From positions 2,176,001 through 2,240,000 of the forward strand of contig OZ245002.1 of NCBI GenBank assembly GCA_965223415.1: 64,000 nucleotides of DNA. The letters are read 5' to 3'. A model generated the notes under the pieces. The model ran no database searches, had not been told where the DNA came from, and saw only the letters and a list, made by a program, of their open reading frames with translations. Below are positions 29,893-62,385 of this stretch, one piece after another. Each line of letters begins with the position of its first letter. Positions within the stretch are counted from its first letter, which is position 1. Both the position numbers and the translations under genes were made by a program. This DNA comes from Myxococcota bacterium (GTDB taxonomy: Bacteria > Myxococcota_A > UBA9160 > UBA6930).

Positions 29893-29967
29893 GCAAGAGT
29901 GGGGACGTTCCTTGCATCTTGCGTTCTCGTTGAGAACGCAAGATGCAAGGAACGTCCCCACTCTTGC
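29893..29967. repeat. Perfect palindrome, 36-bp arms, 3-nt loop (GGGGACGTTCCT core; REP/REPIN-like; probable bidirectional terminator)
   Basis: GCAAGAGTGGGGACGTTCCTTGCATCTTGCGTTCTC-GTT-reverse complement, between convergent genes. Confidence 0.92.
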
Positions 29968-29973
29968 GTATTT

Positions 29974-30177
29974 CTACTCGCTGTTGTCGGGCTTGCGGAG
30001 GGCGCCGAGGAATACCGTGCCGAGGGCCAGCAGGATCTCGTCGGCGAAGGGGATGGCGTCCGGGATGAAGAGGTCGAGGGCGAACACGGCGGCCATCAGC
30101 CAGAAGAGATGCGGATGGCGCAGGCGGCGGGCGAAGCGGGCGATCAGGGCGCCGAGGGTGGCTCGTCCGGCGGACAC
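29974..30177 (-). CDS. Small membrane protein (DUF6116-like)
   Basis: RFARRLRHPHLF...LDLFIPDAIPFADEILLALGT. Confidence 0.75.
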   Translation of the reverse strand: MSAGRATLGALIARFARRLRHPHLFWLMAAVFALDLFIPDAIPFADEILLALGTVFLGALRKPDNSE

Positions 30178-30199
30178 GGCCCGAGCATAGCCCTTGTCC

Positions 30200-30676
30200 T
30201 CAGTCGTAGCGGCGGCCCTCGTGACGCAGCCATCCGCCCGGGTGGCGGCCGTCCGGATCGTGATGGGTCCAGTGGATCACGCCGCCTCGCTCGTTCCACT
30301 CGTATTCGCCCTTGAACTGCACGAGGTCGCCGCGGTGGAGCTCCGGGATGCGTGGCGCCAGGTCGATGTTGTGGGCGATGAGCACCGTGTGGCCGGAGTC
30401 GAGGGCGAGGATGAACCGCTGGTGGCGGGAGCCCTTCTCGTCGTCCCGCAGCACCTTCTCGACCCGGCCCTCCCCGGTGACCAGGATGTCGCTGCTGCCG
30501 GCACGGAAGGCCTCGCCGATCATGTCGTAGCCGTCGGCGGGGCGCGCGGTGGCGGCCGGCGCCGCCGCGGGATCGGGCAGTCCTGCGTCCTCTTGTCGGG
30601 GAGGCAGGTCTCTCAGGAAATAGACGCCGACCAGCAGTGCCAGCAGGAACACGCCGCGGAAGTTGCGCAGCTTCAT
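30200..30676 (-). CDS. DUF3465-like exported protein
   Basis: GEGRVEKVLRDDEKGSRHQRFIL...LIAHNIDLAPRI...GEYEWNERGGVIHWTHHDP. Confidence 0.85.
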   Translation of the reverse strand: MKLRNFRGVFLLALLVGVYFLRDLPPRQEDAGLPDPAAAPAATARPADGYDMIGEAFRAGSSDILVTGEGRVEKVLRDDEKGSRHQRFILALDSGHTVLIAHNIDLAPRIPELHRGDLVQFKGEYEWNERGGVIHWTHHDPDGRHPGGWLRHEGRRYD

Positions 30677-30708
30677 CGGCCGCAGGGTAGCAGCGGTAAG
30701 CTCGGGCC

Positions 30709-31377
30709 ATGGAGCAACGCGAGCTCACGATCCACGTCGGCGACCGCTCCGGCGACGTGAGTGCGGTCTTACAGCGGCCCGACGGGGCCCGCGCCCTGTT
30801 CGTCTTCGCCCACGGCGCCGGCGCCGGGATGCGCCATGCCTTCATGGAGGCGATGAGCGGAGCGCTGGTCGAGCGCGGTATCGCGACGCTCCGTTACGCG
30901 TTTCCCTACACCGAAGCCGGGAAGCGCCGCCCGGACCCGCGCCCGGTCCTGCTGGCGACGGTGCGCGCCGCCGTGCGGGAGGCGCGGGAGCTCGCGGGCG
31001 GGCTGCCGCTCCTGGCCGGTGGCAAGTCGATGGGCGGTCGCATGACGTCCCTGGCCGCTTCCGAAGCCCCGCTCGAGGGCGTACGCGGCCTCGCCTTCGT
31101 CGGCTTCCCCTTGCACTCGGCCGGCAAGCCCGGCGACGAGCGTGCGGCCCACCTGGAGCAGGTCGACCTGCCCATGCTCTTCCTCCAGGGCACCCGCGAC
31201 AAGCTCGCCGACCTCACGCTCCTCGAGCCCGTCGTCGCGAAGCTCGGCGCCCGCGCGACCCTCCACCGCGTCGAAGGTGCCGACCACGGCTTCCACGTCC
31301 TGAAGCGCTCCGGCCGCACCGACGAGGAGGTCCTGGCCGAGCTCGCCGAGCAGATGAAGAAGTGGGGCCAGAGTTAA
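30709..31377 (+). CDS. Alpha/beta hydrolase family (KANL3/Tex30-like)
   Basis: [16 protein letters not shown] nucleophile, GFPLH, QGTRD, ADHGF. Confidence 0.9.
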
Positions 31378-31438
31378 GAATTCAGTTACCCCCCGGAGGG
31401 GGGTAACTGAATTCTTAACTCTGGCCCCACTTCTTCAT
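31354..31438. repeat. Perfect palindrome, 41-bp arms, 3-nt loop, overlapping the 3' ends of both convergent genes
   Basis: ATGAAGAAGTGGGGCCAGAGTTAAGAATTCAGTTACCCCCC-GGA-reverse complement. Confidence 0.93.
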
Positions 31439-32266
31439 TTCGGCGGCGACCTGCTCGAGGACGGCGGGGTCGGTGCCGAAGGGCTCGCTCTCGCGGGGCC
31501 AGTGGACGACGAGGTCGGTGAAGCCGGCTTCTTCGTGGCGGCCGGCGGCGTCGCGGAAGGCATCGATGGAATCGAGAGGGCGCTCGCTCAGGCCGAGGAG
31601 CGCGATGCGTTCGAGGCTCGCGAAGTCGCGGCCGACTTCGCGACACACCTCGCGCAGCCGCTCCACCCGGGCGGCGGGGCTGCCCCGGCTGTCGACGGTT
31701 ACCCAGGCCTGGCCGAGGGTCGCGGCCAGGTGCATGGCGCGGGGGCCGTCGGCGGCGACGGCGAAGGGCAGGCGGGGCCGCTGCACGCAGCCCGGGATCG
31801 CCCGGGCCTCGTCGGCAGAGTAGAAGCGCCCCTCGAAGCTCATGGCGGGCTCGCAGAGCAGGCGGTCGAGGAGCGTCACGAACTCCTCGAAGCGGTCGGC
31901 GCGCTCGCGGGGGCTCCAGGCTTCCTGCCCCAACGCCGTGGCGTCGAAGCTCAGGGCGCCTGCGCCGATACCCAGCGTGAAGCGCCCGCCGGACAGGTCG
32001 TCGAGGGTCATCAGCTCCTTGGCGAAGGGTACCGGGTGCCGGAAGTTCGGCGACGCCACCAGCGTTCCGAGGCGGATCTGCGACGTCACACCCGCCGCCG
32101 CCGCCAGCGTTGGCACGGCGCCGAACCAGGCATGATCGCGCAGGCTCCGCCAGGTGAGGTGGTCGTAGGTCCAGGCGTGGTGGAAGCCCAGCCGCTCGGC
32201 GCTCTCCCAACGCTCGCGGGCCTCCGCCCAGCGCGCGTCGGGCAGGATGACGACGCCGATCCTCAT
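31415..32266 (-). CDS. LLM-class flavin-dependent oxidoreductase (luciferase-like)
   Basis: MRIGVVILP...GFHHAWTYDHL...IRLGTLVASPNFRHP...LDDLSGGRFTLGIGAG. Confidence 0.9.
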   Translation of the reverse strand: MRIGVVILPDARWAEARERWESAERLGFHHAWTYDHLTWRSLRDHAWFGAVPTLAAAAGVTSQIRLGTLVASPNFRHPVPFAKELMTLDDLSGGRFTLGIGAGALSFDATALGQEAWSPRERADRFEEFVTLLDRLLCEPAMSFEGRFYSADEARAIPGCVQRPRLPFAVAADGPRAMHLAATLGQAWVTVDSRGSPAARVERLREVCREVGRDFASLERIALLGLSERPLDSIDAFRDAAGRHEEAGFTDLVVHWPRESEPFGTDPAVLEQVAAEMKKWGQS

Positions 32267-32272
32267 GGCGCC

Positions 32273-32279
32273 TACCCTA
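32273..32279. promoter_or_regulatory. Overlapping bidirectional -10 elements serving two divergent leaderless genes
   Basis: TACCCT(+) 6 nt before GTG at 32285 and TAGGGT(-) 7 nt before ATG at 32266, in an 18-bp intergenic gap. Confidence 0.55.
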
Positions 32280-32284
32280 GCCGA

Positions 32285-33118
32285 GTGGAGCAAGAGGAGC
32301 GCGGCCGACGCGCAGTCACCTTCGATCGCGTCGCCGCCCTCTACGACGCGGTTCGGCCCGGCTACCCCGACGCGCTCGTGGAGCACGTTCTTGCGTTCGC
32401 GGGCCTGGGCGCGCCGGGCCGCATCCTGGAGGTGGGATGCGGGCCGGCCAAGGCGACGCTGCCCTTCGCGCGGCGCGGTCATCGCATGCTGTGCCTCGAG
32501 CCCGGCGCGGCCCTGGCGGCGATCGCGCGAGAGCACTTGGCGCCCTACCCCGATGCCGAGGTGCACGAGGCGCGCTTCGAGGACTTCCCGCTTTCCGACG
32601 CGCCCTTCGATCTCGTGATGTCGGCCCAGGCCTGGCACTGGGTGGACCCGGAGGTCGGCGACGCGAAGGCCGCTCGCGCGCTGCGGCCGGGCGGTGCGGT
32701 CGCGCTCTTCTGGAACCGGCCCATCGAGATCGAGAGCCCCCTGCGCTCCGCCCTCGACGACGTGTACCGCGCCCACGCGCCGCACCTGATGCGGACGATC
32801 GCACCGGGCGGCGGCCAGGCGACGACCGGCGAGCCCCTGGACGAGCGCATCGCCCGGGCCGGCGCCTTCGCTCCCGCCGAGATCCACCGCTTCCCGTGGC
32901 AGGAGGTCTACGAGACGCGCCGCTACCTGGAGCTGATGGAGACCCAGTCCAACCACCAGCTCCTGCCCGAGGCCCCGCGCGAGCGCCTGCTGGAAGGGCT
33001 GGGCCGGGCGATCGACGCGGCCGGGGGCCGGATCGCCGTCGACTACGACGCGGTGCTGATCCTCGCCCGGCGCCTGCCGCAACCAGACGCAGCTTCCGCG
33101 CCCGCGGGAGGCGCTTGA
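32285..33118 (+). CDS. Class I SAM-dependent methyltransferase
   Basis: [45 protein letters not shown]. Confidence 0.88.
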   Translation: MEQEERGRRAVTFDRVAALYDAVRPGYPDALVEHVLAFAGLGAPGRILEVGCGPAKATLPFARRGHRMLCLEPGAALAAIAREHLAPYPDAEVHEARFEDFPLSDAPFDLVMSAQAWHWVDPEVGDAKAARALRPGGAVALFWNRPIEIESPLRSALDDVYRAHAPHLMRTIAPGGGQATTGEPLDERIARAGAFAPAEIHRFPWQEVYETRRYLELMETQSNHQLLPEAPRERLLEGLGRAIDAAGGRIAVDYDAVLILARRLPQPDAASAPAGGA

Positions 33119-33314
33119 TCGCGGCTTCCCGCCGGGATGCCTCGGACCGGTCCGCACAGGGCTCCCGGTAGACCATCTCCACCGGCGGGCGCGCCCGGGT
33201 GTAGCGGGAGGCGCGCCCGCTCCGGTGGGCCTCCAGCCGGCGCGTGAGATCGTTGGTGATTCCGGTATACAACGAGCCGTCGCCGCAGCGCAGGATATAG
33301 ACCCACCAGTCCAC
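32316..33314 (-). CDS. Small GIY-YIG nuclease (YazA/YhbQ-like); recognisable domain ~33075-33314, frame stays open to 32316
   Basis: [27 protein letters not shown]...YTRAR...[12 protein letters not shown]. Confidence 0.75.
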
Positions 33315-33325
33315 GCGCGCGCAGC

Positions 33326-33943
33326 ATGACACAGCCCCCACGGCCTCGGGAGGGTTCACCCGTCGATACGCTCCGTCGCATCTGCGTGTTCTGCGGATCG
33401 AGCCGCGGCGCCGATCCGGCCTACGCCGAGGCCGCCCGCGTGCTCGGCGAGCTGCTCGTCGCCCGGGATCTCGGCCTCGTCTACGGAGGCGGCTGCGTCG
33501 GTCTGATGGGCATCGTCGCCGATACGGTGCTGGCCGCCGGCGGCGAGGTGATCGGCGTCATCCCCCGCGTCCTGGCCCGGAAGGAAGTCGCCCACGAGGG
33601 CCTGAGCGAGCTGCACGTGGTGGAGACCATGTTCGAGCGCAAGCAGGTGATGATGGACCGGGCCGACGCCTTCGTGAGCCTGCCCGGCGGCGTCGGCACC
33701 CTCGACGAGCTCTTCGAGGTGTGGACGTGGGTGCAGCTCGGACAGCTATCGAAGCCCTCCGGGCTCCTCGACGTGGACGGCTTCTACGACGGCCTGTGGA
33801 GCTTCCTCGACGGCCTGGTCGAGGCCCGCTTCCTGCGCACCGAGCACCGCGCGCTCATGCTGCGCGACGACGACCCGGCGCGGCTCCTCGACCGGCTCGC
33901 GGCCTGGAGCCCGCCCGGCGCCGAGAAGTGGATCGACCGGTGA
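33326..33943 (+). CDS. LOG family protein (TIGR00730 Rossmann fold)
   Basis: [26 protein letters not shown]. Confidence 0.93.
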
Positions 33944-34659
33944 GGGAGCGGCCGCCCCGGACACTGCTCCTCGATCTCGACGACACGATCCTGCGCTACG
34001 GCCCCCTCGCCGACGGCGTCTGGGAGGCGGTCACCGCCCGCTTCGCGCCGGAGCTCGGCTTCGAGGCGGCCGTCCTGCTCACGGCCATCCGCGAGGCGGG
34101 CCGTCGCTACTGGTCCGAGCCCGAGCGCAGCCGCCAGGGGCGCCACGACATGCGCGGCGCCCGCCGCAGGATCTGCCTCGACGCGCTGCGCGCCCTCGGC
34201 GCGCCCCGACCGGAGCGGGCGGCCGCCCTGGCCGACGCCTTCCACGACGAGCGCGAAGCGGGCGTCGACCCCATCCCCGGCGCTCTCGACGCCCTCGAGC
34301 ACTTCCGCTCCAGCGGGCTCCCCCTGGCCCTGGTGACCAACGGCGGCCCCGAGCTCCAGCGGCGCAAGATCGAGCGCTTCCGCCTCGCCGGCTTCTTCGA
34401 GACGATCCTGGTGGAGGGAGAGCTGGGCTTCGGCAAGCCGGACGCCCGGGTCTTCCGGATGGCCCTGGCGGCGGTCGGGGCGGAGCCCGGCCAGGCCTGG
34501 ATGGTCGGGGACAACCTGCAGGCGGACATCCACGGCGCCCAGGGGGCGGGGCTCCATGCCTGCTGGGTGGACGCCCCGGGCCGGGGCCTCCCCGCCGGCA
34601 GCGAGGTGCGGCCCACGGCGACGATCCGGGCCCTTGCGGAGCTGATCGAGCAGATCTAG
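33940..34659 (+). CDS. HAD family hydrolase
   Basis: LDLDDT motif [19 protein letters not shown]. Confidence 0.9.
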
Positions 34660-34665
34660 CTTCCC

Positions 34666-34692
34666 AATCAGAATACGATTCGGATTCTGATT
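34666..34692. promoter_or_regulatory. Putative TetR operator
   Basis: AATCAGAAT-ACGATTCGG-ATTCTGATT: perfect 9-bp arms plus inner CGA/TCG, upstream of tetR. Confidence 0.65.
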
Positions 34693-34739
34693 CTTGTTTC
34701 TGTTCCATCGCGCCTCGCGCACGTCCGAAGGAAGCTCCC

Positions 34740-35399
34740 ATGGCCCGATCCGTCCCCGCGCCGCTCGAGAGCGTGAGCCGCCCCAAGCAGGCGCGCAGCG
34801 AGCGCACCCTGCAGCGAATCCTCGCGGCGGCGGAGGAGCTGATCGAGGAGAAGGGCCTGGCGGACGCGTCGATCCCTGAGATCGTGCGCCGCGCCCGCTC
34901 GTCCGTCGGCGGCTTCTACGCCCGCTTCAAGGACAAGAACGAGCTGCTGCGGGCCCTCGAGGAGCGCTTCTTCCGGGAGATGTCGGTCCTGGTCGACGAG
35001 CTCGCGGACGTCGGGCGTTGGCGACAGGCATCGCTGCCCGCGATCGTGCAGGGACTGGGCGCGGAGCTGGTGCGGATCGCCCGGGAGCGCCGCAACCTGA
35101 TCGCCGCCTTCCTGCACCGGGCCACCAGCGACGAGACCACGCGGGCGGAGGCCCTGCGCTTCCGGGCGAGCGTCTCCGAGCGCATCGGCCGGCTCGTGCT
35201 CGCGCGGCCCGAGCGCCTGGGCCACCCCGATCCGGAGATCGCCGTCGATCTCGGCGTCCAGTTCGCCTTCGCCCTGATGCTCCAGATGGTGCTCGTGGGC
35301 GAGGTGAGGGCCGCTGGCCGCGTGCTCTCCGATCCGGAGCTGGCCGGCGAGATCGCCCGCAACTTCCTTTGTTATGTCGCGCCTCAGGAGTCCTCGTGA
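34740..35399 (+). CDS. TetR/AcrR family regulator
   Basis: PKQARSERTLQRILAAAEELIEEKG...SSVGGFYARFKDK. Confidence 0.92.
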   Translation: MARSVPAPLESVSRPKQARSERTLQRILAAAEELIEEKGLADASIPEIVRRARSSVGGFYARFKDKNELLRALEERFFREMSVLVDELADVGRWRQASLPAIVQGLGAELVRIARERRNLIAAFLHRATSDETTRAEALRFRASVSERIGRLVLARPERLGHPDPEIAVDLGVQFAFALMLQMVLVGEVRAAGRVLSDPELAGEIARNFLCYVAPQESS

Positions 35400-36532
35400 A
35401 GTACCAGCAGCACAACCCCCTTCCGATCCCCTCCACCGGCAAGCATCAGGAGGTGAAGGCCACCGTCTCCACCGTCTTCGACTGGGAGTACGCGCTCCGG
35501 CGGCAGGATCTGCTCGCCCTCTATGAGAAGGGCAAAGCGCTCAACTGGAACGCCAGCGAGCTCGATTGGAGCACCGACGTCAGCATCGAGCGGATGATGG
35601 CGGAGCGCGCGGCCTCCGGCGCCGGCGACGTGATGAACAACGTCATGAACCCGCCGAAGACCATGACCGACGAGGAGATGACCCTGCTCCAGCTCCACAT
35701 GAACGGCTTCCTGCTCTCCCAGTTCCTGCACGGCGAGCAGGGTGCGCTGCTGGCGACGGCGAAGATCGTCCAGACCGTGCCCTCGGAGGAGGCGAAGTTC
35801 TACGCCGCCAGCCAGGTGATGGACGAGGCGCGACACGTCGAGGTGTACCACCGCTACCTCACCGAGAAGCTCGGCCTCTCCTACGAAGTGCACCCGAGCC
35901 TCCAGCAGCTCCTCGACGACATCATCACCGATTCGCGCTGGGACGTGACCTTCCTGGGCATGCAGATCATGGTCGAGGGCCTCGCCCTCGCGGCCTTCGG
36001 GCTGATGCGGATGATGATGAGCGGCGAGCCGCTGATCCAGGACATCACCACCCGGGTCATGCAGGACGAATCCCGCCACGTGGCCTTCGGCGTCATGGCG
36101 TTGGAGAAGATCTACAGCGAGGAGATGAGCGCCGCCGAGCTGCGGGAGCGGGAGGACTTCGTGATCGAGGCCACCCACCTGCTGCGGGAGCGCCTGCTCA
36201 TGCACCAGGTGTTCGAGCGGCTCGGCTGGGACGTGCCCCTGTGGGTCGAATGGGCCAAGGAGATGCCCTTCATGCGGGGCTTCCGGCAGATGACCTTCTC
36301 GAAGATCGTGCCCAACTTGAAGCGGCTGGGGCTTCTCACCCCACGGGTGCGCGAGGCCTACGAGAAGCTTGACCTTCTGCGCTTCGAGCACATGAAGGAC
36401 TCGGTAGCGGAGCCGGAGCCGACGCCGCCGACGGAGCTGGTCCAGATCCTGATGCAATTCCTGGCCGAGGGGCCCCAGGGCCAGCCGGAGGCGCAGCAGG
36501 AGGGTCAGCGGGCGGTTCGCGCCACGGGCTGA
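35396..36532 (+). CDS. Ferritin-like diiron protein (AurF/R2-like superfamily)
   Basis: LSQFLHGEQGAL, DEARHVE, MQIMVEGLAL, QDESRHVAFG; GTG overlapping the tetR stop. Confidence 0.85.
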   Translation: MKYQQHNPLPIPSTGKHQEVKATVSTVFDWEYALRRQDLLALYEKGKALNWNASELDWSTDVSIERMMAERAASGAGDVMNNVMNPPKTMTDEEMTLLQLHMNGFLLSQFLHGEQGALLATAKIVQTVPSEEAKFYAASQVMDEARHVEVYHRYLTEKLGLSYEVHPSLQQLLDDIITDSRWDVTFLGMQIMVEGLALAAFGLMRMMMSGEPLIQDITTRVMQDESRHVAFGVMALEKIYSEEMSAAELREREDFVIEATHLLRERLLMHQVFERLGWDVPLWVEWAKEMPFMRGFRQMTFSKIVPNLKRLGLLTPRVREAYEKLDLLRFEHMKDSVAEPEPTPPTELVQILMQFLAEGPQGQPEAQQEGQRAVRATG

Positions 36533-36633
36533 GCGGACCCCGGAACATCGGGCTAGCCGCGGGCCGAGCCCCACTTGCGCGACCCGGCCCCAGGCCATCA
36601 CACTGGCGCCTTCATCAGGCTCAGGGACGGGGA

Positions 36634-37722
36634 ATGCCGAAGATCCGGATCGCGATCGTGGGCGTCGGGAATTGCGCCAGCTCGCTGGTGCAGGGAATCC
36701 ACTACTACGCGGGGAAGCAGCGCGAAGACGCGGTCGGCCTGATGCACTGGGAGATCGGGGGCTTCCGCCCCTCGGATCTCGAGGTGGTGGCGGCCTTCGA
36801 CGTCGACCGGCGCAAGGTCGGCCTCGACGTCAGCGAGGCGATCTTCGCCCCGCCGAACTGCACCCAGGCCTTCGCGCCCGAGGTGGCGAAGGTAGGCGTG
36901 CAGGTGCGGATGGGCCGGGTCCTGGACGGCGTGTCCGCCCACATGGCCGAGCAGCCGGAGGCGCGGACCTTCCAGGTGGCCGACGCTCTCGAGGCCGATC
37001 GGGCCGAGGTGGTGCGGGTGCTCCGCGAAGCGCGGGCCGAAGTGGTGGTGAACTATCTGCCCGTCGGTTCCGAGCTGGCGGCGCGCTTCTATGCGGAGTG
37101 CGCACTCGAGGCCGGTGCCGGGCTCGTGAACTGTATCCCGGTCTTCATCGCGAGCGACCCGGCCTGGGCCGAGCGCTTCGCCGAGCGCGGCCTCCCGATC
37201 GTCGGAGACGACATCAAGGCCCAGCTCGGTGCGACGATCACCCACCGCATGCTCACCGAGCTCTTCGCCCTCCGCGGCGTGAAGCTCGAGCGCACCTATC
37301 AGCTCAACACCGGCGGCAACACCGACTTCCTGAACATGCTGAACCGCAGCCGCCTTGCCTCCAAGAAGGAGTCGAAGACCGAGGCCGTTCAGTCCGTCGC
37401 CGCCGAGCGCCTCGACGACGAGAGCATCCACGTCGGCCCTAGCGACTACGTCGCCTGGCAGAACGACAACAAGATCTGCTTCCTGCGCATGGAAGGCAAG
37501 CTCTTCGGCGACGTCCCGATGAACCTGGAGTTGCGCCTCTCCGTCGAGGACTCGCCGAACAGCGCCGGCGTCGCCATCGACGCCATCCGTTGCTGCAAGC
37601 TCGCCAAGGACCGGGGGCAGGGCGGCATCCTCGAAGCCGCGAGCGCCGCGTTCATGAAGCATCCGCCGCGCCAGCTTCCCGACGAGGAGGCGCACCGGCG
37701 GCTCGAGGACTTCGTCCGCTAG
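36634..37722 (+). CDS. ino1: myo-inositol-1(3)-phosphate synthase
   Basis: IVGVGNCASSLVQG, NYLPVGS, GDDIKAQLGAT, YQLNTGGNTDFLNM, SKKESKT, DSPNSAG. Confidence 0.95.
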   Translation: MPKIRIAIVGVGNCASSLVQGIHYYAGKQREDAVGLMHWEIGGFRPSDLEVVAAFDVDRRKVGLDVSEAIFAPPNCTQAFAPEVAKVGVQVRMGRVLDGVSAHMAEQPEARTFQVADALEADRAEVVRVLREARAEVVVNYLPVGSELAARFYAECALEAGAGLVNCIPVFIASDPAWAERFAERGLPIVGDDIKAQLGATITHRMLTELFALRGVKLERTYQLNTGGNTDFLNMLNRSRLASKKESKTEAVQSVAAERLDDESIHVGPSDYVAWQNDNKICFLRMEGKLFGDVPMNLELRLSVEDSPNSAGVAIDAIRCCKLAKDRGQGGILEAASAAFMKHPPRQLPDEEAHRRLEDFVR

Positions 37723-37775
37723 GCGGCTACCGGCGAGTGCTAGGCTGGGATTCCATCGCTCGGAGGTCGTCGGCG

Positions 37776-37916
37776 ATGCTGCGATGGATCCCGGTGCTCG
37801 CAATCCTCCTGGGCACCGCCGACCGCGTCGGGTCGTCACGCGCATGGTGGTCGACGACCACATCGCCGCCGACTCTTCCTACGTCGCCTTTCTCGCGCTC
37901 TCGAAGCCGGTGCTGA
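37776..37916 (+). other. Small ORF or internally deleted gene remnant with signal-peptide-like start
   Basis: TAGGCT (37741), GGAGG RBS, ATG 37776: MLRWIPVLAILLGTA...; 46 aa. Confidence 0.35.
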
Positions 37917-37923
37917 CCGCGCC

Positions 37924-40900
37924 TCACCGCAGCTGGTCGAGCATCCAATGGGCGCGGGGGAAGAGGGCCTCGGCGCGGGTGTCCGGGGCCCGCGCCCGGA
38001 CGCGCTGGTCCGGGAGGACTTCGAGCTCGGGCTCCCCGTCGCCATCGCCGGTCATCCATTCGACGAGACGCGCCGGGTCGACCTGGCTGGTCTCGGCGGC
38101 CGTCAGGACGAGGGCGCCGCGCTCCAGCTCGATCTTCAGGACGCCGAGCTCGCGGGCGCGCACCTTGAGCTCGATCACCTGGATCAAGTGCCGGGCCTCT
38201 TCGGGAAGCGGGCCGAAGCGGTCGAGCAGCTCCTCGCGCAGGCGCCGCGCCTCCTCGAGGTCCGGCGCTGCGGCGAGCCGCTTGTACAGGACGAGACGCT
38301 GGCTCACGTCGGCGACGTAGTCTTCGGGCAGCCGCGCTGCGACCGGCAGGCGGATCTCCGGATCGATCGCCACCGGCCGGCCGCTGCCCCGGAGCTCGGC
38401 GATCGATTCCTCGAGGAGCTCCATGTAGGTCTCGTAGCCCACCGCGCCCAGGTTCCCGGACTGCTCGCCGCCCAGCAGGTTGCCCGCGCCGCGGATCTCC
38501 AGGTCCATGTTCGCCAGCCGGAAGCCGCTGCCGAGCTCGGCGAGGTCCTGGATCGCCTCGAGCCTCCGCGTGGCGTCCGGCGTGAGCGCTGCCTCGCCCG
38601 GGATCAGCAGGTAGGCGTAGGCGCGCTGCCGGCTGCGGCCGACCCGGCCCCGGAGCTGGTAGAGCTGGGCCAGGCCGAGGGCGTCGGCCCGGTCGACCAG
38701 GAGGGTGTTCGCACGGGGGATGTCGAGGCCGCTCTCGATGATCGTCGTACACAGGAGCACGTCGAACTCGCCGCGCATGAAGGCGAGCATGCGGTCCTCG
38801 AGCTCGCGCTCCGGCATCTGGCCGTGGGCCGTCAGCAGCTTCACTTCCGGGACGATGCGTTCCAGGAACTCCGCCAGGGCTCCGATCGTCCGCACCCGGT
38901 TGTGCACGAAGAACACCTGCCCGCCTCGCCGCACCTCGCGAAGGATCGCCTCGCGAATCAGGGACTCCTCGAAGCGGCACACCTGGGTGCGGATGGCGAG
39001 ACGGTCTGCCGGCGGCGTCTGGATCACCGAGAGGTCCCGCAGGCCGCTGAAGGCCATCTGCAGGGTGCGGGGAATCGGCGTAGCGGTGAGCGTCAGCACG
39101 TCCACCGTCTGCTTGAGCTGCTTGATGCGCTCCTTGTGGGCGACGCCGAAGCGGTGCTCCTCGTCCACCACCAGGAGCCCGAGGTCCCGGAACGACACGC
39201 TCTTCTGCAGAAGCCGGTGCGTTCCGATCACGATGTCGACGTGGCCGGTGGCGAGACCCTCGAGCACCGCCTTGGCTTCTCTGGCGCCGCGGAAGCGCGA
39301 GAGGCTCTCTACCCGGGCGCCGGTGCCCTTGAAGCGTTCTTCGAAGGTCTCGGCATGCTGCTGACACAGTACGGTGGTGGGGACGAGCACCGCGACCTGC
39401 TTGCCGGCCATCACCGCCTGGAAGGCGGCGCGACAGGCGACCTCGGTCTTTCCGTAGCCGACGTCGCCGCACACCAGGCGATCCATCGGGCGGTTGCGGG
39501 AGAGATCGGTGAGCACGTCCTCGATCGCCGCCGCCTGATCCGGCGTCTCCTCGTAGGGGAAGGCCGCCTCGAACTCCTCGAGGGCGCGATCGCGTCCGGG
39601 GAAGGCGACACCGGTGGCGAGCTCGCGAGCCGCGTGCACGTCGAGGAGCTCCTTCGCCATGTCGCGCATGGAGCGCTTGACGGCGCGCTTCGTCTTCTCC
39701 CAGGTGGTTCCGCCGAGTTTGTCGACCTTCGGCGCCGCGCTCTCGGCGCCGACGTAGCGCTGCACCAGGTTGAGCCGGTGCACGGGCACGAAGAGCCGGT
39801 CGCCGTCCTCGTACTCGATGCGCAGGAACTCGTCGGAGAAGCGCCCGAGCTCGAGCATGACCAGGCCGCGGTAGATGCCGATGCCGTGCTCTGCGTGGAC
39901 CAGGAAATCGCCCGCGGCAAGCTGGCCGAGCGCCTCCACGGCGGCGCCTTCCCGGAAGCTCCCGGCGCGGCGACGCTTCTCTCGCGGCCCGAAGACCTCT
40001 TCCTCGGTGGCCAGGGCGATCCCTTCGTCGCGCAGCACGAAGCCCTCGCCGGCGGCGCCGACCCGCACCTCCACGCGCCCGGGCGCCGACCACTCCCAGA
40101 GCGGCACCGGCTCGCGCACCAGCTCTGCCGCGACCCCGTACTCGCCCAGCAGGGTGTGCAGGCGGTCGGCGCCGGAGAGCGCCGCGGCCGAGAGCACCAC
40201 CCGCAGGCCTTCCCCGCACCAGCGCTCCAGCGCCTGCACCAGGGGCTCCAGCGCACCGCCCGTCGCCGCCTCGTTGCGCCGGGTGCGCAGCACCGCGGAA
40301 AGCTCTTCCTGGGATTCCGAGCGAACGGTCAGCGCGCCGTCTCCCGCCGCCACCTCCAGGCGCTCGAGCTCCACGGGCGCGCGTCGCGCCACCTCGGCCT
40401 GTACGGCGTCCGCGCCGAGGGCGAGCTCGTCCGGTGCGCACACGACCCGCTCGCCGTTCTGGGCGCCGTTCCAGTTGTCGAGGCGCTCGGCGTCGGTGCG
40501 GAGCAGGGCGTCGCGGCCGGCGGCGGGCTCGTCGATCACGACCAGGGTGTCGTCGGGAAGCGCGTCGAAGACGGTCTCGGTGGCCGGCTGCAGGAGCGGC
40601 GCCATCGCTTCCGCGCCGGGGGGCAGGCTGCCGCGCAGCAGGGTGTCGAGCAGCTCGTCGAGCTTGCGAGGCTCCACGCCCTGGCGCGCGCCGAGCTCGC
40701 GGATCGCGTCGCTGCGGCTCACGAAGAGCTCGCGGTCGCCGAGGATCTCCCGGGCCGGCGCGGCAACCACCCGCTGGAGCCGCTGCTGGGAGCGCTGGCT
40801 CGCGGGATCGAACTCGCGCAGGGATTCGACCTCGTCCCCGAGCAGCTCGATGCGCACCGGTCGGGTGCGCTGGGGCGGGAACAGGTCCACCAGGCCGCCG

Positions 40901-41439
40901 CGCACCGCCACCTCGCCGCGCTCCTCCACGACGGGCTGGCGCGTGTAGCCCGCAGCGACGAGGGTTGCGACCAGCTCGTCCCGATCGATCCAGGTGCCCA
41001 CGTCCAGCCGCACCGAGCGCGCGCGCACGACCTCTCGCGCCGGCACCCGACCCGCCAGCGCCGACCAGGGCGCGACGATCACCGGCGCTGGCTCGTCGGC
41101 GGGCGGATCGGCGAGGCGGAAGAGCACATCCAGCCGCTGGGCCACCACGAAGGGCTGGGGCGAAAAGCGGTCGTAGGGCGGCGTGTCCGGATGCGGGAAG
41201 CTGCGCACCCGCCCGCCTTCTTCGGCCGGCGGCTCGCCGAGGGCTGCCGCCAGGTCCTGGGCGGCGCGATCGGTCTCCTTGGCGCCCGCGGTGAGCACGA
41301 GCACGGTGCGATCGCCGGCCGCCTGCACCAACCGGGCGAGGACCGCCACCCGGGCGCCGCCCCGCAGGCCCATCAGCCGGCGCGGGCCCAAGCCGCCCGC
41401 CAGCCGCACGGCCAGCTGCTCGAGATCCCCTCTCGCCAC
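37924..41439 (-). CDS. mfd: Transcription-repair coupling factor
   Basis: VHAEHGIGIY (CarD/RID), FPYEETPDQ, MDRLVCGDVGYGKTEVA, DEEHRFG, TATPIPRT, QLRGRVGRS, DLEIRGAGNLLG. Start inferred. Confidence 0.97.
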   Translation of the reverse strand: MARGDLEQLAVRLAGGLGPRRLMGLRGGARVAVLARLVQAAGDRTVLVLTAGAKETDRAAQDLAAALGEPPAEEGGRVRSFPHPDTPPYDRFSPQPFVVAQRLDVLFRLADPPADEPAPVIVAPWSALAGRVPAREVVRARSVRLDVGTWIDRDELVATLVAAGYTRQPVVEERGEVAVRGGLVDLFPPQRTRPVRIELLGDEVESLREFDPASQRSQQRLQRVVAAPAREILGDRELFVSRSDAIRELGARQGVEPRKLDELLDTLLRGSLPPGAEAMAPLLQPATETVFDALPDDTLVVIDEPAAGRDALLRTDAERLDNWNGAQNGERVVCAPDELALGADAVQAEVARRAPVELERLEVAAGDGALTVRSESQEELSAVLRTRRNEAATGGALEPLVQALERWCGEGLRVVLSAAALSGADRLHTLLGEYGVAAELVREPVPLWEWSAPGRVEVRVGAAGEGFVLRDEGIALATEEEVFGPREKRRRAGSFREGAAVEALGQLAAGDFLVHAEHGIGIYRGLVMLELGRFSDEFLRIEYEDGDRLFVPVHRLNLVQRYVGAESAAPKVDKLGGTTWEKTKRAVKRSMRDMAKELLDVHAARELATGVAFPGRDRALEEFEAAFPYEETPDQAAAIEDVLTDLSRNRPMDRLVCGDVGYGKTEVACRAAFQAVMAGKQVAVLVPTTVLCQQHAETFEERFKGTGARVESLSRFRGAREAKAVLEGLATGHVDIVIGTHRLLQKSVSFRDLGLLVVDEEHRFGVAHKERIKQLKQTVDVLTLTATPIPRTLQMAFSGLRDLSVIQTPPADRLAIRTQVCRFEESLIREAILREVRRGGQVFFVHNRVRTIGALAEFLERIVPEVKLLTAHGQMPERELEDRMLAFMRGEFDVLLCTTIIESGLDIPRANTLLVDRADALGLAQLYQLRGRVGRSRQRAYAYLLIPGEAALTPDATRRLEAIQDLAELGSGFRLANMDLEIRGAGNLLGGEQSGNLGAVGYETYMELLEESIAELRGSGRPVAIDPEIRLPVAARLPEDYVADVSQRLVLYKRLAAAPDLEEARRLREELLDRFGPLPEEARHLIQVIELKVRARELGVLKIELERGALVLTAAETSQVDPARLVEWMTGDGDGEPELEVLPDQRVRARAPDTRAEALFPRAHWMLDQLR

Positions 41440-41537
41440 GCTCGCGTCGTCCTCCCGGTGATCGGCCGCCGAATGCACGACGCCCGCTCCCCGCGCGAGG
41501 CGGGGGCGGGTAGCCCTGCGACGTTGGCGCGGGGAGC

Positions 41538-43405: not shown

Positions 43406-43428
43406 GTTCCCAGCCTACCCCCGCGCCT

Positions 43429-45063: not shown

Positions 45064-45070
45064 CCGGGGC

Positions 45071-46111: not shown

Positions 46112-46170
46112 GGCCCTGGCTTCCTCCTATGATCCGCCGCTTCCGTCCAGTTCCGCCCAGGAGAGGGAAC

Positions 46171-46812: not shown

Positions 46813-46815
46813 AAC

Positions 46816-46850: not shown

Positions 46851-46867
46851 GGCCCCGCGGGGTCGCC

Positions 46868-48831: not shown

Positions 48832-48902
48832 GAGGGGCAGGAGCGTACCAGGGCCCGTATGATCCTCCCTCCCCCGCAACCCTGACGCTTCCGGAGGCTC
48901 CC

Positions 48903-49385: not shown

Positions 49386-49387
49386 GC

Positions 49388-50824: not shown

Positions 50825-50844
50825 GAAGCGGGGCCGTTTCTCGA
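50821..50844. repeat. Short hairpin with GGGGCCG core (possible minimal member of the palindrome family or terminator)
   Basis: TTGAGAAGCGGGGCCGTTTCTCGA, includes the DUF3179 stop codon. Confidence 0.45.
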
Positions 50845-50858
50845 CTATGCTGTCGGCC

Positions 50859-51992
50859 ATGAGCGATCTTCGTCCTTTCCGGATCGACGTGCCCGACTCG
50901 GTGCTCGCGGATCTGCGCGAGCGTCTCGCGCGGACGCGCTGGACCGATCAGATCCCGGACACCGGGTGGAAGCTCGGTACCGACACCGCCTACCTGCGGG
51001 AGCTGTGCGACTACTGGCGCGAAGGCTACGACTGGCGCGCCCAGGAGGCGCAGCTCAATGCCGTGCCCCAGTTCACCACCGAGATCGACGGCCAGCGGAT
51101 CCACTTCGTGCACGCGCGCTCGAAGCACGAGGACGCGCTGCCCCTCGTGATCACCCACGGCTGGCCGGGCTCGGTGCTCGAGTTCCAGAAGATCACGCCC
51201 CTGCTCACCGACCCGGAGGCCCACGGCGGGCGCAAGGAGGACGCGTTCCACGTCGTGTGCCCGTCGATGCCCGGCTACGGCTTCTCCGGGCCGACCGCGG
51301 ACCGCGGCTGGGACCCGAAGCGCATCGCCGCCGCCGAGGTGGAGCTGATGCGGCGCCTCGGCTACGAGCGCTACGGCGCCCAGGGCGGTGACTGGGGCTC
51401 GATGGTCACGAGCCAGATCGGCGCCCTCGACCCGGAGCACTGCGCGGGCATTCACCTCAACATGGTGATCGCGCTCCCCCAGGAGGGTGAGCTCGACGAG
51501 CAGGAGCAGGGCTGGGCCACGGACACCCAGACCTTCAACACCCGGGAGACCGGCTACCAGCAGATCCAGGGCACGAAGCCCCAGACCCTGGGCCTCAGCC
51601 TGAACGACTCGCCTGCGGGCCTGTGCGGCTGGATCGTCGAGAAGTTCCGCACCTGGAGCGATTGCGGCGGCGACGTGGAGAGCGTCTTCAGCCGGGACGA
51701 GCTGCTGACTAACGTGATGATCTACTGGGTGACCGAGACCATCAACTCGTCGATCCGCCTCTACTACGAGGTGATGCAGGGCGGCACGGCGCTTCCTACC
51801 GAGAAGGTCCCGGTGCCGATGGGCTGCGCGATCTTCCCCCGCGAGATCTACAAGGCCCCGCGCAAGTGGGCCGAGGCGCTCTACGACGTCCGACACTACG
51901 AGGTGTACGAGAAGGGCGGCCACTTCGCGGCCATGGAGCAGCCCCAAGCCCTCGCGAAGGACCTGCGCACCTTCTTCGCCATGGTGCGCTAG
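50859..51992 (+). CDS. Epoxide hydrolase (microsomal-type, EHN domain)
   Basis: PFRIDVPD, HGWPGS, QGGDWG, HLN, LNDSPAGL, GGHFAAMEQP. Confidence 0.93.
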   Translation: MSDLRPFRIDVPDSVLADLRERLARTRWTDQIPDTGWKLGTDTAYLRELCDYWREGYDWRAQEAQLNAVPQFTTEIDGQRIHFVHARSKHEDALPLVITHGWPGSVLEFQKITPLLTDPEAHGGRKEDAFHVVCPSMPGYGFSGPTADRGWDPKRIAAAEVELMRRLGYERYGAQGGDWGSMVTSQIGALDPEHCAGIHLNMVIALPQEGELDEQEQGWATDTQTFNTRETGYQQIQGTKPQTLGLSLNDSPAGLCGWIVEKFRTWSDCGGDVESVFSRDELLTNVMIYWVTETINSSIRLYYEVMQGGTALPTEKVPVPMGCAIFPREIYKAPRKWAEALYDVRHYEVYEKGGHFAAMEQPQALAKDLRTFFAMVR

Positions 51993-52088
51993 TGAGACAA
52001 GGGGACGTTCCTGTCTGTCTCACTCCTCGACATGGGCCTTGGGCGACCTGTTGGGAGTGAGACAGACAGGAACGTCCCTTTGTCTCAC
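51992..52088. repeat. Palindrome, 35-bp arms (1 mismatch), 27-nt loop, GGGGACGTTCCT core
   Basis: GTGAGACAAGGGGACGTTCCTGTCTGTCTCACTCC ... GGAGTGAGACAGACAGGAACGTCCCTTTGTCTCAC, between convergent genes. Confidence 0.9.
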
Positions 52089-54370: not shown

Positions 54371-54374
<4 letters not shown>

Positions 54375-59519: not shown

Positions 59520-59669
59520 GGCGGTCCCCCCTTCTGGGCAACGTAGCGGCCGGCGCTAGGCGGAAGTTTATTGACAAATATCATCCAGAACCGGCCGGGG
59601 CCTTTCGGAGGTTGGCGTCCCGCGGGTCCGGATGCTTGAATCAGGCCCGCTCGAGAAGAGAGGAGCCCC

Positions 59670-60485
59670 ATGGCGCTGGAGATCCTGCGGGACCCGAGGC
59701 TGGAACAGGTGGAGTGGAAGGATCTCTGCGATCTCGGACCGGTCGAGGTGGCCTACGAGGTGGCGATCTACGTGCCGTGGCTGCTGGCTTCGTGGGTGTT
59801 CGCCCACTGGGCGTTCTCCTGGCACCTGGCCTGGCTCCTCGCCGCCCTGGCGAGCTCGTTCATGTTCTTCCTGTGCGGTCTCCGCCAGGTGCACAACGCC
59901 TTCCACTACGCGGTGGGTGTCTCGCCCAAGGTCCATGAGTGGCTGATGTTCGTGCTGTCGCCGCTGATGATGAGCGCGATGCACGCCGTGCAGTGGAACC
60001 ACCTGCGCCACCACCGCCATTGCATGGACGACGAAGACGTCGAGGCGATGAGCGCGCGCATGCCCGGGTGGAAGGCGCTCGTCACCGGGCCCCAGTTCCC
60101 CGTGCGGCTGCACCACGCCGCCCTCACCATCGGCAAGCCGCGCATCAAGCGCTGGATCTGGCTCGAGCTTGCCGCGATCGCCGGCATGGTCGTCCTGGCT
60201 TTCGGCCTGCTGGACGCTGCCTGGCTCCGCTACCACGTGGTGGCGATGGTCGTGGGCCAGTGCTTCTCGGCGTTCTTCGCGGTGTGGACCGTGCACCACG
60301 ATTGCGACCGTACCCACTTCATCGCGCGCACCCTGCGCAACGAAGTCAAGTCCTTCGTCAGCTACAACATGTTCTACCACGTGGAGCACCACCTCTTCCC
60401 CGCCGTGCCCACCTGCCACCTGCCCGAGCTGTCGAAGCGGCTGGACGTCGTGGCGCCGGAGCTGCGCTCGAAGAACGTTTGGTGA
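59670..60485 (+). CDS. Fatty acid desaturase family protein
   Basis: His boxes HNAFH, HLRHHRH, VHH, YHVEHHLFP; GAGGAG RBS. Confidence 0.9.
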   Translation: MALEILRDPRLEQVEWKDLCDLGPVEVAYEVAIYVPWLLASWVFAHWAFSWHLAWLLAALASSFMFFLCGLRQVHNAFHYAVGVSPKVHEWLMFVLSPLMMSAMHAVQWNHLRHHRHCMDDEDVEAMSARMPGWKALVTGPQFPVRLHHAALTIGKPRIKRWIWLELAAIAGMVVLAFGLLDAAWLRYHVVAMVVGQCFSAFFAVWTVHHDCDRTHFIARTLRNEVKSFVSYNMFYHVEHHLFPAVPTCHLPELSKRLDVVAPELRSKNVW

Positions 60486-60492
60486 GCGCCGG

Positions 60493-61287
60493 GTGAGGCG
60501 GGTCGCGCTCGCCGCCATCGCATTGGCCGTGATCCTGGCCCTGCTGGGTCACGCCATCGACGGGATGCGGCCGCTGCGTCAGCTTCCGCTGTGGAGCGGG
60601 CTACACCTAGCTTCTCTGGGTGGCGCGCTCCTCGGGGCCGCTGCCCTGCGGCGGTTCGCGCCCGAGCCACCGAGCTGGCCGCTGCTCGGGCTCGGGGTCG
60701 CGCTCGCCTGGAGGCTCGCCTACTTCCCCGTGATGGTGTTCTCCGGCCATGTCGCGAGCATCGGCGAATGGCTGCTGCTCTCGCTCGGGCTGCCGGTCGT
60801 CGTCTATCCCACCTTCCTGCTCTCGGTGGCGGCGATCCACGCGGCTGCGGGTGCGGGCGCCGGGCTCGTGATGCGGCCGCCCCACCGCCTCGCGCGGCCG
60901 GCGCTGCTCGGCGCCTTCGCGGTGGCCGCGGCGGTCTCCTTCAACCGGCTCTCGGATCTCACCCTGCTTCCGGACCCGGTACGTCGCATCGACGGCCCGG
61001 TGCCGATGATGCGGGCCGAGAGGGGCAATCCCTACCTCCCGGCGCTCGTCGGCCCGGGGTACCTGCCGAACCAACGCGTCGTGCTCCTCGCGGCCGGTCT
61101 CACCTACGAGACGATTCCCCCCTCGCCCTGGGCCACCACGGTGAAGGCGGTGCTCGAGGGGCTCTTCGATACCAGGCCCTTCGGCTCCACGGCGGACCGG
61201 GTGCTCGAGCACTACCTCGCCTATCATGCCTCGCACGCCCAGATCGGCTGTCGCGATCTTGGCGACTGCCCGCCCGACGCGCCGTGA
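60493..61287 (+). CDS. Hypothetical membrane protein
   Basis: Several TM segments then a polar C-terminal domain ending CRDLGDCP; stop overlaps the next GTG. Confidence 0.65.
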   Translation: MRRVALAAIALAVILALLGHAIDGMRPLRQLPLWSGLHLASLGGALLGAAALRRFAPEPPSWPLLGLGVALAWRLAYFPVMVFSGHVASIGEWLLLSLGLPVVVYPTFLLSVAAIHAAAGAGAGLVMRPPHRLARPALLGAFAVAAAVSFNRLSDLTLLPDPVRRIDGPVPMMRAERGNPYLPALVGPGYLPNQRVVLLAAGLTYETIPPSPWATTVKAVLEGLFDTRPFGSTADRVLEHYLAYHASHAQIGCRDLGDCPPDAP

Positions 61288-62324
61288 GCAAGACGATCGT
61301 GGTGGTGGGCGCCACCGGCGAGATGGGCGCCCGGGTCGTGAGGCTCGTCCGTCGTCTCGCGCCGACGGCGCTTCTGATCGGCACGAATCGCAGCGGCCGC
61401 GGGCACGCTGAGCTGCCGATTCGTCCCCTCGACGTCGGCGACCGGGACGGGATGGCAGAGCTGCTCGAGACCGCGGACCTCGTCGTCAACGCGGTCGGGC
61501 CCTACACCTACGACCCGGCGCCGATCGTGAACGCGGCCATCTCTTCGCGGTGCCACTACGCGGATCTCGCGGAGCGTCTGTCCTTCATCGAACGGGTGCG
61601 GACGGTGGGGGACGCCCGGGCGGCGAAGGCCGGCGTGCTGCTCGTGCCCGGGTGCTCGACGCTGCCGGGCCTGGTCGAAGCACTGGCCCAGCGATGGCAC
61701 GCGGACGCGGCGGTGGCGGGGCTGCGGGTGTTCCTCTCGATGGGCTCCCGGAACCCGGTGAGCCGGGCGCTGCTCGCGAGCCTCCTGCTGCCGATCGGGC
61801 GCGAGGGCGGGCCGGGCCGCTGGTACGGGAAGCTCGTGTCCCACGTGGCGCGGGACGGCCGGGAGCTCGTCTTCGGCAGCTACCCGGCGCCCTTCTCCCG
61901 CTCCCAGCTGCGCATCGGCCAACGGGGCGTGCCGATCCGCTTCCACATGGGCTTCGATCGCGCCTGGCTGAATCGCGCGCTCGTCCTGGGCGCCCCCGTG
62001 CTCGGGCGGCTCGGCCCCCGCTGGGTGGAGCGGCTCGCCGGTGTGGCCCTGCCCCTCGCCCGCCTGGCGCGCCGCTTCGGCACCGACCGCGGCGTGCTCA
62101 GCATCGTCGCCGAAGACGCCGCGGGCGCCGAGCTCGCTCGCACCGAGGTGCTCGCCGAGCAGGCCGGCCTCGACATTCCGGCCCTCCCCGCCGCCTGGCT
62201 CGCCCAGGCCCTCGTCCGCGAAGGCTGGGCCGCCGCCCCCGGCGCCCGCACCCTCTCCCGCGTCCTCAGCGCCAACGAAGCCGCCACCCACCTCACCGAC
62301 GCCGGCTACACCGTGTTAAGTTAG
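61284..62324 (+). CDS. Saccharopine dehydrogenase-like NAD(P)-binding oxidoreductase
   Basis: VVGATGEMG, VNAVGPY, HYADL, GCSTLPGL. Confidence 0.82.
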   Translation: MSKTIVVVGATGEMGARVVRLVRRLAPTALLIGTNRSGRGHAELPIRPLDVGDRDGMAELLETADLVVNAVGPYTYDPAPIVNAAISSRCHYADLAERLSFIERVRTVGDARAAKAGVLLVPGCSTLPGLVEALAQRWHADAAVAGLRVFLSMGSRNPVSRALLASLLLPIGREGGPGRWYGKLVSHVARDGRELVFGSYPAPFSRSQLRIGQRGVPIRFHMGFDRAWLNRALVLGAPVLGRLGPRWVERLAGVALPLARLARRFGTDRGVLSIVAEDAAGAELARTEVLAEQAGLDIPALPAAWLAQALVREGWAAAPGARTLSRVLSANEAATHLTDAGYTVLS

Positions 62325-62385
62325 GGGCCGGTTCCGATTGTCAAGTTGTCACAACTTGACAATCGGAACCGGCCCCTAACTTAAC
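62315..62385. repeat. Perfect palindrome, 35-bp arms, 1-nt centre, GGGGCCGGTTCC core
   Basis: GTTAAGTTAGGGGCCGGTTCCGATTGTCAAGTTGT-C-reverse complement; supplies the TAG stop of the upstream + strand gene. Confidence 0.93.

Follow-up and report, generated by a model that had tools for sequence, protein, structure and literature searches.

Four families of palindromic repeats, each with a probable cognate RAYT-type transposase, in the genome of a Myxococcota bacterium

Introduction

What places long, almost perfect palindromes between convergent genes, and what keeps the two arms of each palindrome alike when one palindrome differs so much from the next? The question is raised by a 64,000-nt stretch of the genome of an uncultured Myxococcota bacterium (assembly GCA_965223415.1, contig OZ245002.1, positions 2,176,001–2,240,000; hereafter the window, to which coordinates refer unless given as genomic), the host genome being a single contig of 5.83 Mb with 71% GC. 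A sequence-only reading of the window had described four long inverted repeats with a GGGG core, a solo arm and a mini hairpin, and had interpreted them as one poorly described family of non-autonomous elements, strongly divergent from copy to copy, under active arm-to-arm homogenisation and with any cognate enzyme outside the window. Here we find four families in place of one, with an enzyme gene for each, and conclude that the palindromes are very probably non-autonomous mobile repeats of the REPIN or terminal-inverted-repeat (TIR) kind, each family having its cognate REP-associated tyrosine transposase (RAYT; REP, repetitive extragenic palindrome). The feature is real but ordinary, a kind of element already known from other bacteria.

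Results

Four families of arms account for the palindromes

When the whole genome was searched for inverted repeats, 156 non-redundant palindromes came up whose arms reached 25 nt or more; of the 137 among them with loops of at most 40 nt, 135 fall into just four families, A to D, so that the GGGG core noticed in the window proves to be enriched across the genome. The arm consensus sequences are AACGCAAGAgtGGGGACGTTCCTTGCAaCTTGCG for family A, tgAAGAAaCGGGGCCAGAGTTAAGAATTCAGTT for B, GTGAGACAAgGGGACGTTCCTttCTGTCTCAC for C and GTTgaGtTaGGGGCCGGTTCCGTTTGTTaaGTTG for D. All carry a conserved element, GGGG(A/C)C, lying 8–13 nt from the outer end and reading GGGG(A/C)CG when extended, and none contains GTAG. 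Profiles built from anchored arms (E ≤1) yield a census of 405 arms (A 107, B 99, C 96, D 103), of which 349 reach 25 bits or more. Paired arms make up 140 inverted doublets (A 44, B 45, C 41, D 10), and the remaining 125 arms are solo (A 19, B 9, C 14, D 83).

The window contains one doublet per family and one solo arm of family D. The family A doublet occupies 29893–29967 (arms 29893–29928 and 29932–29967, 36 nt, 100% identical, 3-nt loop), and its arms fit the A profile with E values of 6e-11 and 4e-12. The family B doublet, centred on 31396, spans 31352–31440 (arms 31352–31394 and 31398–31440, 43 nt with one mismatch, 3-nt loop). Family C is represented by a doublet of long-loop type at 51992–52088 (arms 51992–52026 and 52054–52088, 35 nt, 97% identical, 27-nt loop), and family D by a doublet at 62315–62385 (arms 62315–62349 and 62351–62385, 35 nt, 100% identical, 1-nt loop) together with the solo arm at 46816–46850 on the + strand, whose match to the D profile (46818–46850, E 7.7e-6) is significant. 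Positions and arm lengths thus agree with those first described, save that the arms of the B doublet extend to 43 nt. All four palindromes also lie between convergent genes, as had been said of them, in gene predictions made from the genome's own codon usage (5271 genes, 91.5% coding), and they are indeed richer in AT than their surroundings, with a GC content of 0.48–0.58 against 0.71 for the genome. The impression that the copies differ strongly is correct for these four, because each belongs to a different family; within a family, arms differ at only 3.9–6.2 of 35–38 positions on average. What had been taken for a single heterogeneous family is therefore a set of four homogeneous ones, and the proposal that its members are non-autonomous elements gains support.

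Chance does not produce palindromes of this kind: perfect, non-overlapping inverted arms of 20 nt have four centres in the window and none in 100 first-order Markov simulations. In GC-rich bacteria convergent genes often have long hairpins between them, and the palindromes might on that account be terminator-like structures that arose independently in place and never moved. We regard this as extremely unlikely. Each family comprises forty to a hundred near-identical arms, which could not have arisen independently; one doublet has a twin elsewhere in the genome with unrelated flanks (see below); and a search of Rfam over window positions 29000–63000 found no family at gathering score.

That perfect palindromes should turn up in a single-contig assembly invites a second doubt, namely that they are fold-back artefacts, the more so as short-read contigs break inside them: in Logan contigs from four runs of one study, covering window positions 29500–49400, ends fall within the A and B palindromes (29940, 29956, 31399 and 31409). 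Such breaks are what k-mer assembly of repeats would produce and speak neither for nor against the palindrome centres; three of the contigs bridge the D solo arm without differences. Joints listed among these contigs have sides of just 20–30 letters, in a metagenome, and carry no weight. The 140 doublets are family-specific and sit at gene ends with both flanking genes intact; the same core recurs as plus/minus pairs 35–160 nt apart in independent assemblies of relatives; and the arms also flank genes for Y1 transposases, about 900 nt apart. We give assembly error next to no credence.

Each family brackets one Y1 transposase gene

The Pfam family Y1_Tnp has eight matches in the genome. Four of these are single-copy genes, 875–927 nt long and of about 273–290 codons, all outside the window, and each is bracketed by inverted arms of one family (31–37 nt matched) with the G-run end outermost: RAYT-A (genomic 859166–859990; arms 859063–859099 and 859993–860029), RAYT-B (about 1714162–1715031; arms 1714137–1714168 and 1715096–1715129), RAYT-C (about 3235897–3236696; arms 3235821–3235851 and 3236732–3236763) and RAYT-D (3528067–3528888; arms 3528036–3528069 and 3528945–3528975). 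The expectation that a cognate enzyme would lie beyond the window is thereby borne out four times over. Among same-family inverted arm pairs 81–5000 nt apart, the four around the Y1_Tnp genes, one per family, are the only ones with a spacing of 837–927 nt, and the remaining pairs span ordinary genes; one candidate for cargo, a 200-amino-acid gene between two D arms 614 nt apart, turned out to encode an ordinary histidine phosphatase. In a doublet the two arms keep the orientation that they have around the RAYT gene, with a short loop in the gene's place, and we take the doublet to derive from the gene-bearing unit by deletion.

Other Y1-related genes in the genome lack this arrangement. One is a canonical IS200-type TnpA (L001), which scores 151 bits against the NCBIfam model transpos_IS200 and has no A–D arms nearby. 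A second Y1-like gene (L005, L006 and L008; HVH motif, about 230–290 codons) is present as three copies 89–93% identical plus two remnants, likewise without A–D arms in its vicinity, and behaves as an ordinary multi-copy insertion sequence.

The gene-and-arm layout extends well beyond this genome. A search of 31 genomes, the host's and those of relatives, found homologues at E ≤1e-10 in 13, and inverted repeats whose core is GGGGAC, GGGGCC or GGGGTC flank all 11 loci from the relatives. A broader scan of one genome per species gave 408 stretches encoding homologues, the best 80 of which come mostly from metagenome-assembled genomes labelled Myxococcota or Deltaproteobacteria, Desulfobacterales and Syntrophales-type, with a few labelled Planctomycetota, Nitrospirota, NC10 or Spirochaetales. 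Where both flanks are available in other species, inverted repeats of 16 nt or more flank 52 of 55 loci; in 44 of the 55 an inverted, GGG-led 10-mer is common to both flanks, and 42 of those 44 fit GGG[ACT]CG. The core sequence GGGGACGTTCC is found in 165 copies in the host genome, as against none for a reversed control, and in 24–67 copies in 11 of 60 other genomes of the order, as against 0–3 for the control, often as the plus/minus pairs mentioned above.

These observations bear on whether the doublets might be miniature inverted-repeat transposable elements of a cut-and-paste (DDE) insertion sequence, with the Y1 genes as mere frequent neighbours. The arms do resemble terminal inverted repeats, and a doublet could pass for an internally deleted transposon. 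However, no genes other than the four Y1 genes, one per family, stand between same-family arms at a constant and tight spacing; the pairing of a Y1 gene with GGGG-bearing arms recurs at the 11 loci of relatives and the 52 of other species just described; and no target-site duplication flanks the twin copy or the junctions compared among congeners below. A DDE origin is accordingly very unlikely.

The enzymes resemble TnpAREP and carry a helix-turn-helix domain

RAYT-A, RAYT-B and RAYT-D match Pfam PF01797 (Y1_Tnp) with 31.1, 32.3 and 37.1 bits, and the N-terminal piece of RAYT-C, a gene split by a frame shift, with 27.3 bits (cut-off 23). Four residues, H60, H62, Y119 and N123, are invariant in all 12 aligned homologues. 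In Escherichia coli TnpAREP the HUH motif is H59-M60-H61, Y115 is the catalytic tyrosine and N119 the metal-binding asparagine (PMC3479197), and the spacing of H60, H62, Y119 and N123 equals that of H59, H61, Y115 and N119. A tyrosine-to-phenylalanine change at alignment position 102 might have meant that the C and D enzymes lack their catalytic tyrosine; this was ruled out, the catalytic residue being the invariant Y119.

Structural comparison leads to the same protein. An AlphaFold model (pLDDT 88, with helices at residues 200–269) finds as its best match in the PDB TnpAREP (4er8; E 5.6e-6, target TM score 0.72), followed by the ISDra2 and IS608 TnpA proteins. A profile search reached 4er8 at E 0.009 and domain IV of DnaA (2z4r) at E 0.006; a single-sequence search of the PDB with RAYT-A gave weak helix-turn-helix (HTH) matches only, and it was the fold comparison that decided the matter. 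The C-terminal region of RAYT-A contains an HTH_23 domain (31.2 bits, cut-off 24.6), and that of RAYT-D scores 23.3 bits against HTH_23 and 20.0 bits against Bac_DnaA_C, both under the respective cut-offs. From sequence and modelled fold, the four genes are predicted to encode HUH/Y1 transposases of RAYT/TIRYT type with a C-terminal helix-turn-helix.

Whole doublets have been copied to new sites

The window's C doublet has a twin at genomic 1537608–1537704, 690 kb away and in the opposite orientation, and the two agree at 95 of 97 positions across arms and loop. The likeness stops exactly at GTGAGAC...GTCTCAC; the flanks are unrelated, and neither here nor at the junctions compared among species is there a flanking target duplication.

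Occupancy also varies among congeneric species, whose genomes are 70–83% identical to the host's in DNA sequence. The family A site is empty in congener G002, and the D solo arm is missing from the same spacer in G001, G002 and G004. The junction of the D doublet is empty in G003 and G004, which have in its stead a spacer of about 20 nt and three more codons, and another long-loop C doublet is absent from the same junction in G002–G005. The contigs of G003 and G005 end at the position of the D solo arm, which hints at repeats there.

Two stretches beside window elements are themselves variable: 29457–30177, with a SnoaL-like gene and a 67-amino-acid open reading frame (ORF), and 50847–51992, with an epoxide-hydrolase-like gene, have no counterpart in the syntenic region of several congeners. 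The epoxide-hydrolase-like gene has a 69%-identical paralogue at genomic 1356649–1357778, beside another C doublet. The elements may mark borders of accessory genes.

Copying of doublets explains most of the arm symmetry

The near-identity of paired arms, attributed by the sequence-only reading to active homogenisation, has for the most part a simpler origin. Arms of the same doublet differ on average at 1.3–2.8 positions, arms of different doublets at 3.9–6.2. Variant sites are symmetric within a doublet in 267 cases, only 24 of which are private to one doublet; asymmetric variant sites number 314 and lie for the most part at the arms' outer and inner edges. Family A, for example, consists of a few sub-lineages with common inner segments. 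Because most symmetric variants are common sub-lineage variants of this kind, most of the symmetry is explained by the copying of whole doublets.

A minor role for homogenisation may remain beside the G-run. In all four families no interior position varies more than the one or two bases 5' of it, and a change there is usually found on both arms; in the window these bases lie at 29902–29904, 31362–31364, 52000–52001 and 62322–62323. In family A these bases combine freely with the types of inner segment (seven four-gamete violations), a reticulate pattern of symmetric variation.

A different kind of variation marks the long-loop members of family C. In twelve such doublets the loop is of constant length (31–33 nt between GTCTCAC and GTGAGAC) and unrelated in sequence. 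The loops (window 52024–52056 and, for instance, L144:793–824) begin with TCC and end with GGA; two pairs of doublets have the same loop, and the others have no second copy in the genome. At the high divergence involved, nothing in the loops visibly resembles the spacers that four relatives have at the junction compared.

The elements sit at gene 3' ends

Junctions between neighbouring genes in this genome are convergent in 832 cases, tandem in 3607 and divergent in 831. The doublets are distributed quite otherwise: 86 are convergent, 49 tandem, 4 divergent and 1 intragenic. In 74 of the 86 convergent doublets both stop codons lie inside the arms or within 10 nt of them, and 119 gene ends reach at least 4 nt into an element. 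Convergent spacers free of elements have a median length of 14 nt, and 314 of 693 measure 10 nt or less. The close fit from stop to stop, and the donation of last codons, follow from the compactness of the genome together with the stop codons carried in the arm ends; special targeting of stop codons was considered and is unnecessary given spacers so small.

The window illustrates the range of fits. Next to the A doublet, the stops of the SnoaL-like gene (+) and of the 67-amino-acid ORF (−) each fall 4 nt beyond the doublet end. Both convergent genes enter the B doublet by 23 nt, and an arm-encoded tail, MKKWGQS*, closes both flanking proteins, although the genes, Abhydrolase_11 and a luciferase-like monooxygenase according to Pfam, are unrelated. 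The C doublet begins with the final G of the TAG codon that closes the epoxide-hydrolase-like gene, and the D doublet donates the last two codons and the stop (L-S-TAG) to the gene on the + strand. The D solo arm lies in a 55-nt spacer between tandem genes for ribosomal protein L3 and an FtsJ-like methyltransferase.

Around the B doublet (31316–31476), weaker complementarity continues past the 43-nt arms into both genes, to 79 nt at 82% overall, and the flanking proteins have similar C-terminal peptides (one being TDPAVLEQVAAEMKKWGQS) despite the genes being unrelated. This could be chance in GC-rich code, or the trace of an older and longer element.

Doublets are predicted to fold into hairpins of −42 to −52 kcal/mol as DNA and −63 to −82 kcal/mol as RNA. 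Transcripts of both flanking genes would then end in a very stable hairpin, which could terminate transcription or protect the 3' end, likely as a side effect of the element's presence. An intrinsic terminator would have a short, GC-rich stem and then a run of T; here the stems measure 35–43 bp. The relation may also be the reverse: the elements might be host devices, bidirectional terminators or 3'-end stabilisers kept by selection, with a secondary link to the transposases, an explanation that is compatible with a mobile origin. Consistent with it are the preference for convergent junctions (86 of 140 doublets, with only 4 divergent), the strength of the RNA hairpins, element-free convergent spacers that leave little room for ordinary terminators, and symmetric arm variants that preserve pairing. 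Yet an arm is present at only 139 of the 832 convergent junctions, so that most genes manage without; positions are not conserved among congeneric species; the 83 solo D arms cannot fold into a hairpin; and purifying selection on random insertions would be equally expected to produce the bias towards 3' ends. A primary role as host devices strikes us as possible but doubtful.

Relation to known systems

The system is closest to the TIRtrons and their TIRYT enzymes with GGGG-motif TIRs and, equally, to the HTH-bearing subclass 2.1 of TnpAREP. TIRtrons (Di Nocera, De Gregorio & Rocco 2013; PMC3733652) are RAYT-like Y1 genes between terminal inverted repeats, instead of GTAG hairpins, and the RAYT genes described here stand between such repeats. 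Many published TIRs include a GGGG-led motif, in some genomes TIR families occur as singles, dimers and clusters, and several enzyme/TIR pairs per genome are possible, all as seen here. The published motif, GGGGWSAS, which is present in the majority of cases and not in all, shares the G-run with our GGGG(A/C)CG and differs from it at positions 7–8; it fits none of the 44 related loci with a common 10-mer. Our hosts, going by record titles, are uncultured Myxococcota and relatives, whereas the string 'Myxococc' is absent from PMC3733652, and all four pairs in this genome are amplified, to about 96–107 arms each. Our literature search found no work on such elements in Myxococcota or on GGGGACGTTCC, with the proviso that the TIRYT alignment and Figure 9 of PMC3733652 might list GGGGACG-type tags.

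Subclass 2.1 of the TnpAREP enzymes has a Y1/HUH core with a C-terminal extension like Bac_DnaA_C, HTH_23 or HTH_28 and includes most TIRYTs (Quentin et al. 2018; PMC6006769). Our enzymes likewise join a Y1/HUH core to a C-terminal HTH_23-like domain, an assignment made by domain architecture. They differ in that their flanking arms belong to large dispersed families, whereas subclass 2.1 genes are reported in that paper to have no REP-like sequences beside them. Since GGGG-motif TIRYT repeats and HTH-bearing enzymes have both been published, the elements can hardly be called poorly described.

The analogy with REPINs and RAYTs, drawn at the outset from the layout, holds both for the layout and for the cognate Y1 genes. 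Pseudomonas and enterobacteria have REPIN–RAYT systems (Bertels & Rainey 2011; PMC3116915) in which, likewise, the repeats that a single-copy Y1 gene presumably mobilises lie on either side of it; each gene has one repeat family, the inverted doublet is the replicating unit and the repeats are extragenic. The catalytic residues (HUH, Tyr and Asn) and the fold are common to both (PMC3479197). REPINs are recognised by two inverted units that replicate together, and the C twin, along with the symmetric sub-lineage variants of several doublets, is evidence of just that. The present systems depart from the classic ones in the extra HTH domain of the enzyme and in doublets that are perfect palindromes with 0–5-nt loops abutting stop codons. 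Elements of the IS200/IS605 kind share the Y1 HUH fold and insertion without target duplication, and differ in having asymmetric, subterminal, imperfect hairpins and in being multi-copy as whole elements.

Discussion

Whole doublets, including the loop, are the unit copied to new sites, and mobilisation by the four enzymes could proceed as follows. In single-stranded form, to judge from the literature on IS200/IS605 and TnpAREP, a doublet would fold into a perfect hairpin of 35–43 bp that serves as the enzyme's substrate, and the nuclease domain would cut and rejoin the strand through its conserved tyrosine (Y119 in RAYT-A). Specificity for one family might come from the HTH domain, from the core or from both. 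Copies survive almost only at gene 3' ends.

Several points weigh against the elements being mobile repeats with cognate RAYTs. For the scheme just given, it is we who infer cleavage, strand specificity, intermediate and target. A one-base frame shift at a G-run (L007:1740–1760; ...FNRRHHRVG / HLFQNRFKS...) breaks up RAYT-C, yet family C comprises 41 doublets and a near-identical twin; recent inactivation to a pseudogene, a sequencing error, programmed frame shifting, mobilisation in trans or a gene less tightly tied to its repeat than supposed are all possible explanations. The proteins score 57.8–61 bits against the NCBIfam equivalog model for REP-associated tyrosine transposases (NF047646), under its cut-off of 80, and appear from these scores to be relatives of the curated set instead of equivalogs. 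The 5' GTAG of classic REPs is lacking, and B and D arms form no hairpins alone, having no internal stem (ΔG of the D solo arm as DNA, −1.5), so that the doublet is the only long hairpin. The constant-length, variable-sequence loops of family C are not explained by simple copying. The 'empty' sites of relatives are 20–25% diverged and show a spacer and a few codons replaced, with no clean insertion, and at this divergence gain cannot be told from loss; neither a target motif nor a duplication was found at the compared sites. Finally, cumulative GC skew is weak and asymmetric and genes have no strand bias (2673 of 5271 on the putative leading strand), so that the split of the D solos, 45 of 83, carries no information on the lagging-strand bias expected of Y1 transposition.

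A more far-reaching proposal is that HTH-bearing RAYTs of subclass 2.1 run REPIN-like populations across several phyla with GGGG(A/C)CG as their tag, and that the bases 5' of the G-run mark a cut-and-join site at which one arm serves to rebuild the other, whether through fold-back synthesis or through repair inside the hairpin. We think this unlikely as a whole. If true, the rebuilding of arms would be arm-to-arm homogenisation, and could account for the long-loop C doublets too.

On the reading that the repeats are mobilised by their cognate RAYTs, a known class of mechanism would explain perfect palindromes of 70–100 bp at about one in six convergent junctions, and the genome would offer a natural example of four enzyme/repeat pairs with a common core and separate specificities. 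It would extend TIRYT-type systems to uncultured Myxococcota-like bacteria, and would suggest that the HTH-bearing RAYT clade is able to amplify its flanking repeats to hundreds of copies. The repeats also have practical consequences: they break short-read assemblies of relatives and rewrite the last codons of about 119 genes, and masking or annotating them is advisable in this lineage.

Other repeats in the genome

The mini hairpin at 50821–50844 exists as described, with GGGGCC in its loop and a predicted RNA ΔG of −11.4. Contrary to what had been supposed, it does not belong with the larger palindromes: it matches none of the four arm profiles, is no member of families A–D, and its pattern is single in the genome.

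A separate class of intergenic repeats, with no Rfam match at E ≤0.01, occurs elsewhere (L169:365–523 and L169:673–843; also L170 and L171). Its conserved cores, of about 99 and 113 nt, are present in 5 and 10 copies at 77–97% identity, often in tandem pairs, and each core is bracketed by GC-rich inverted repeats of 25–34 nt that vary from copy to copy.

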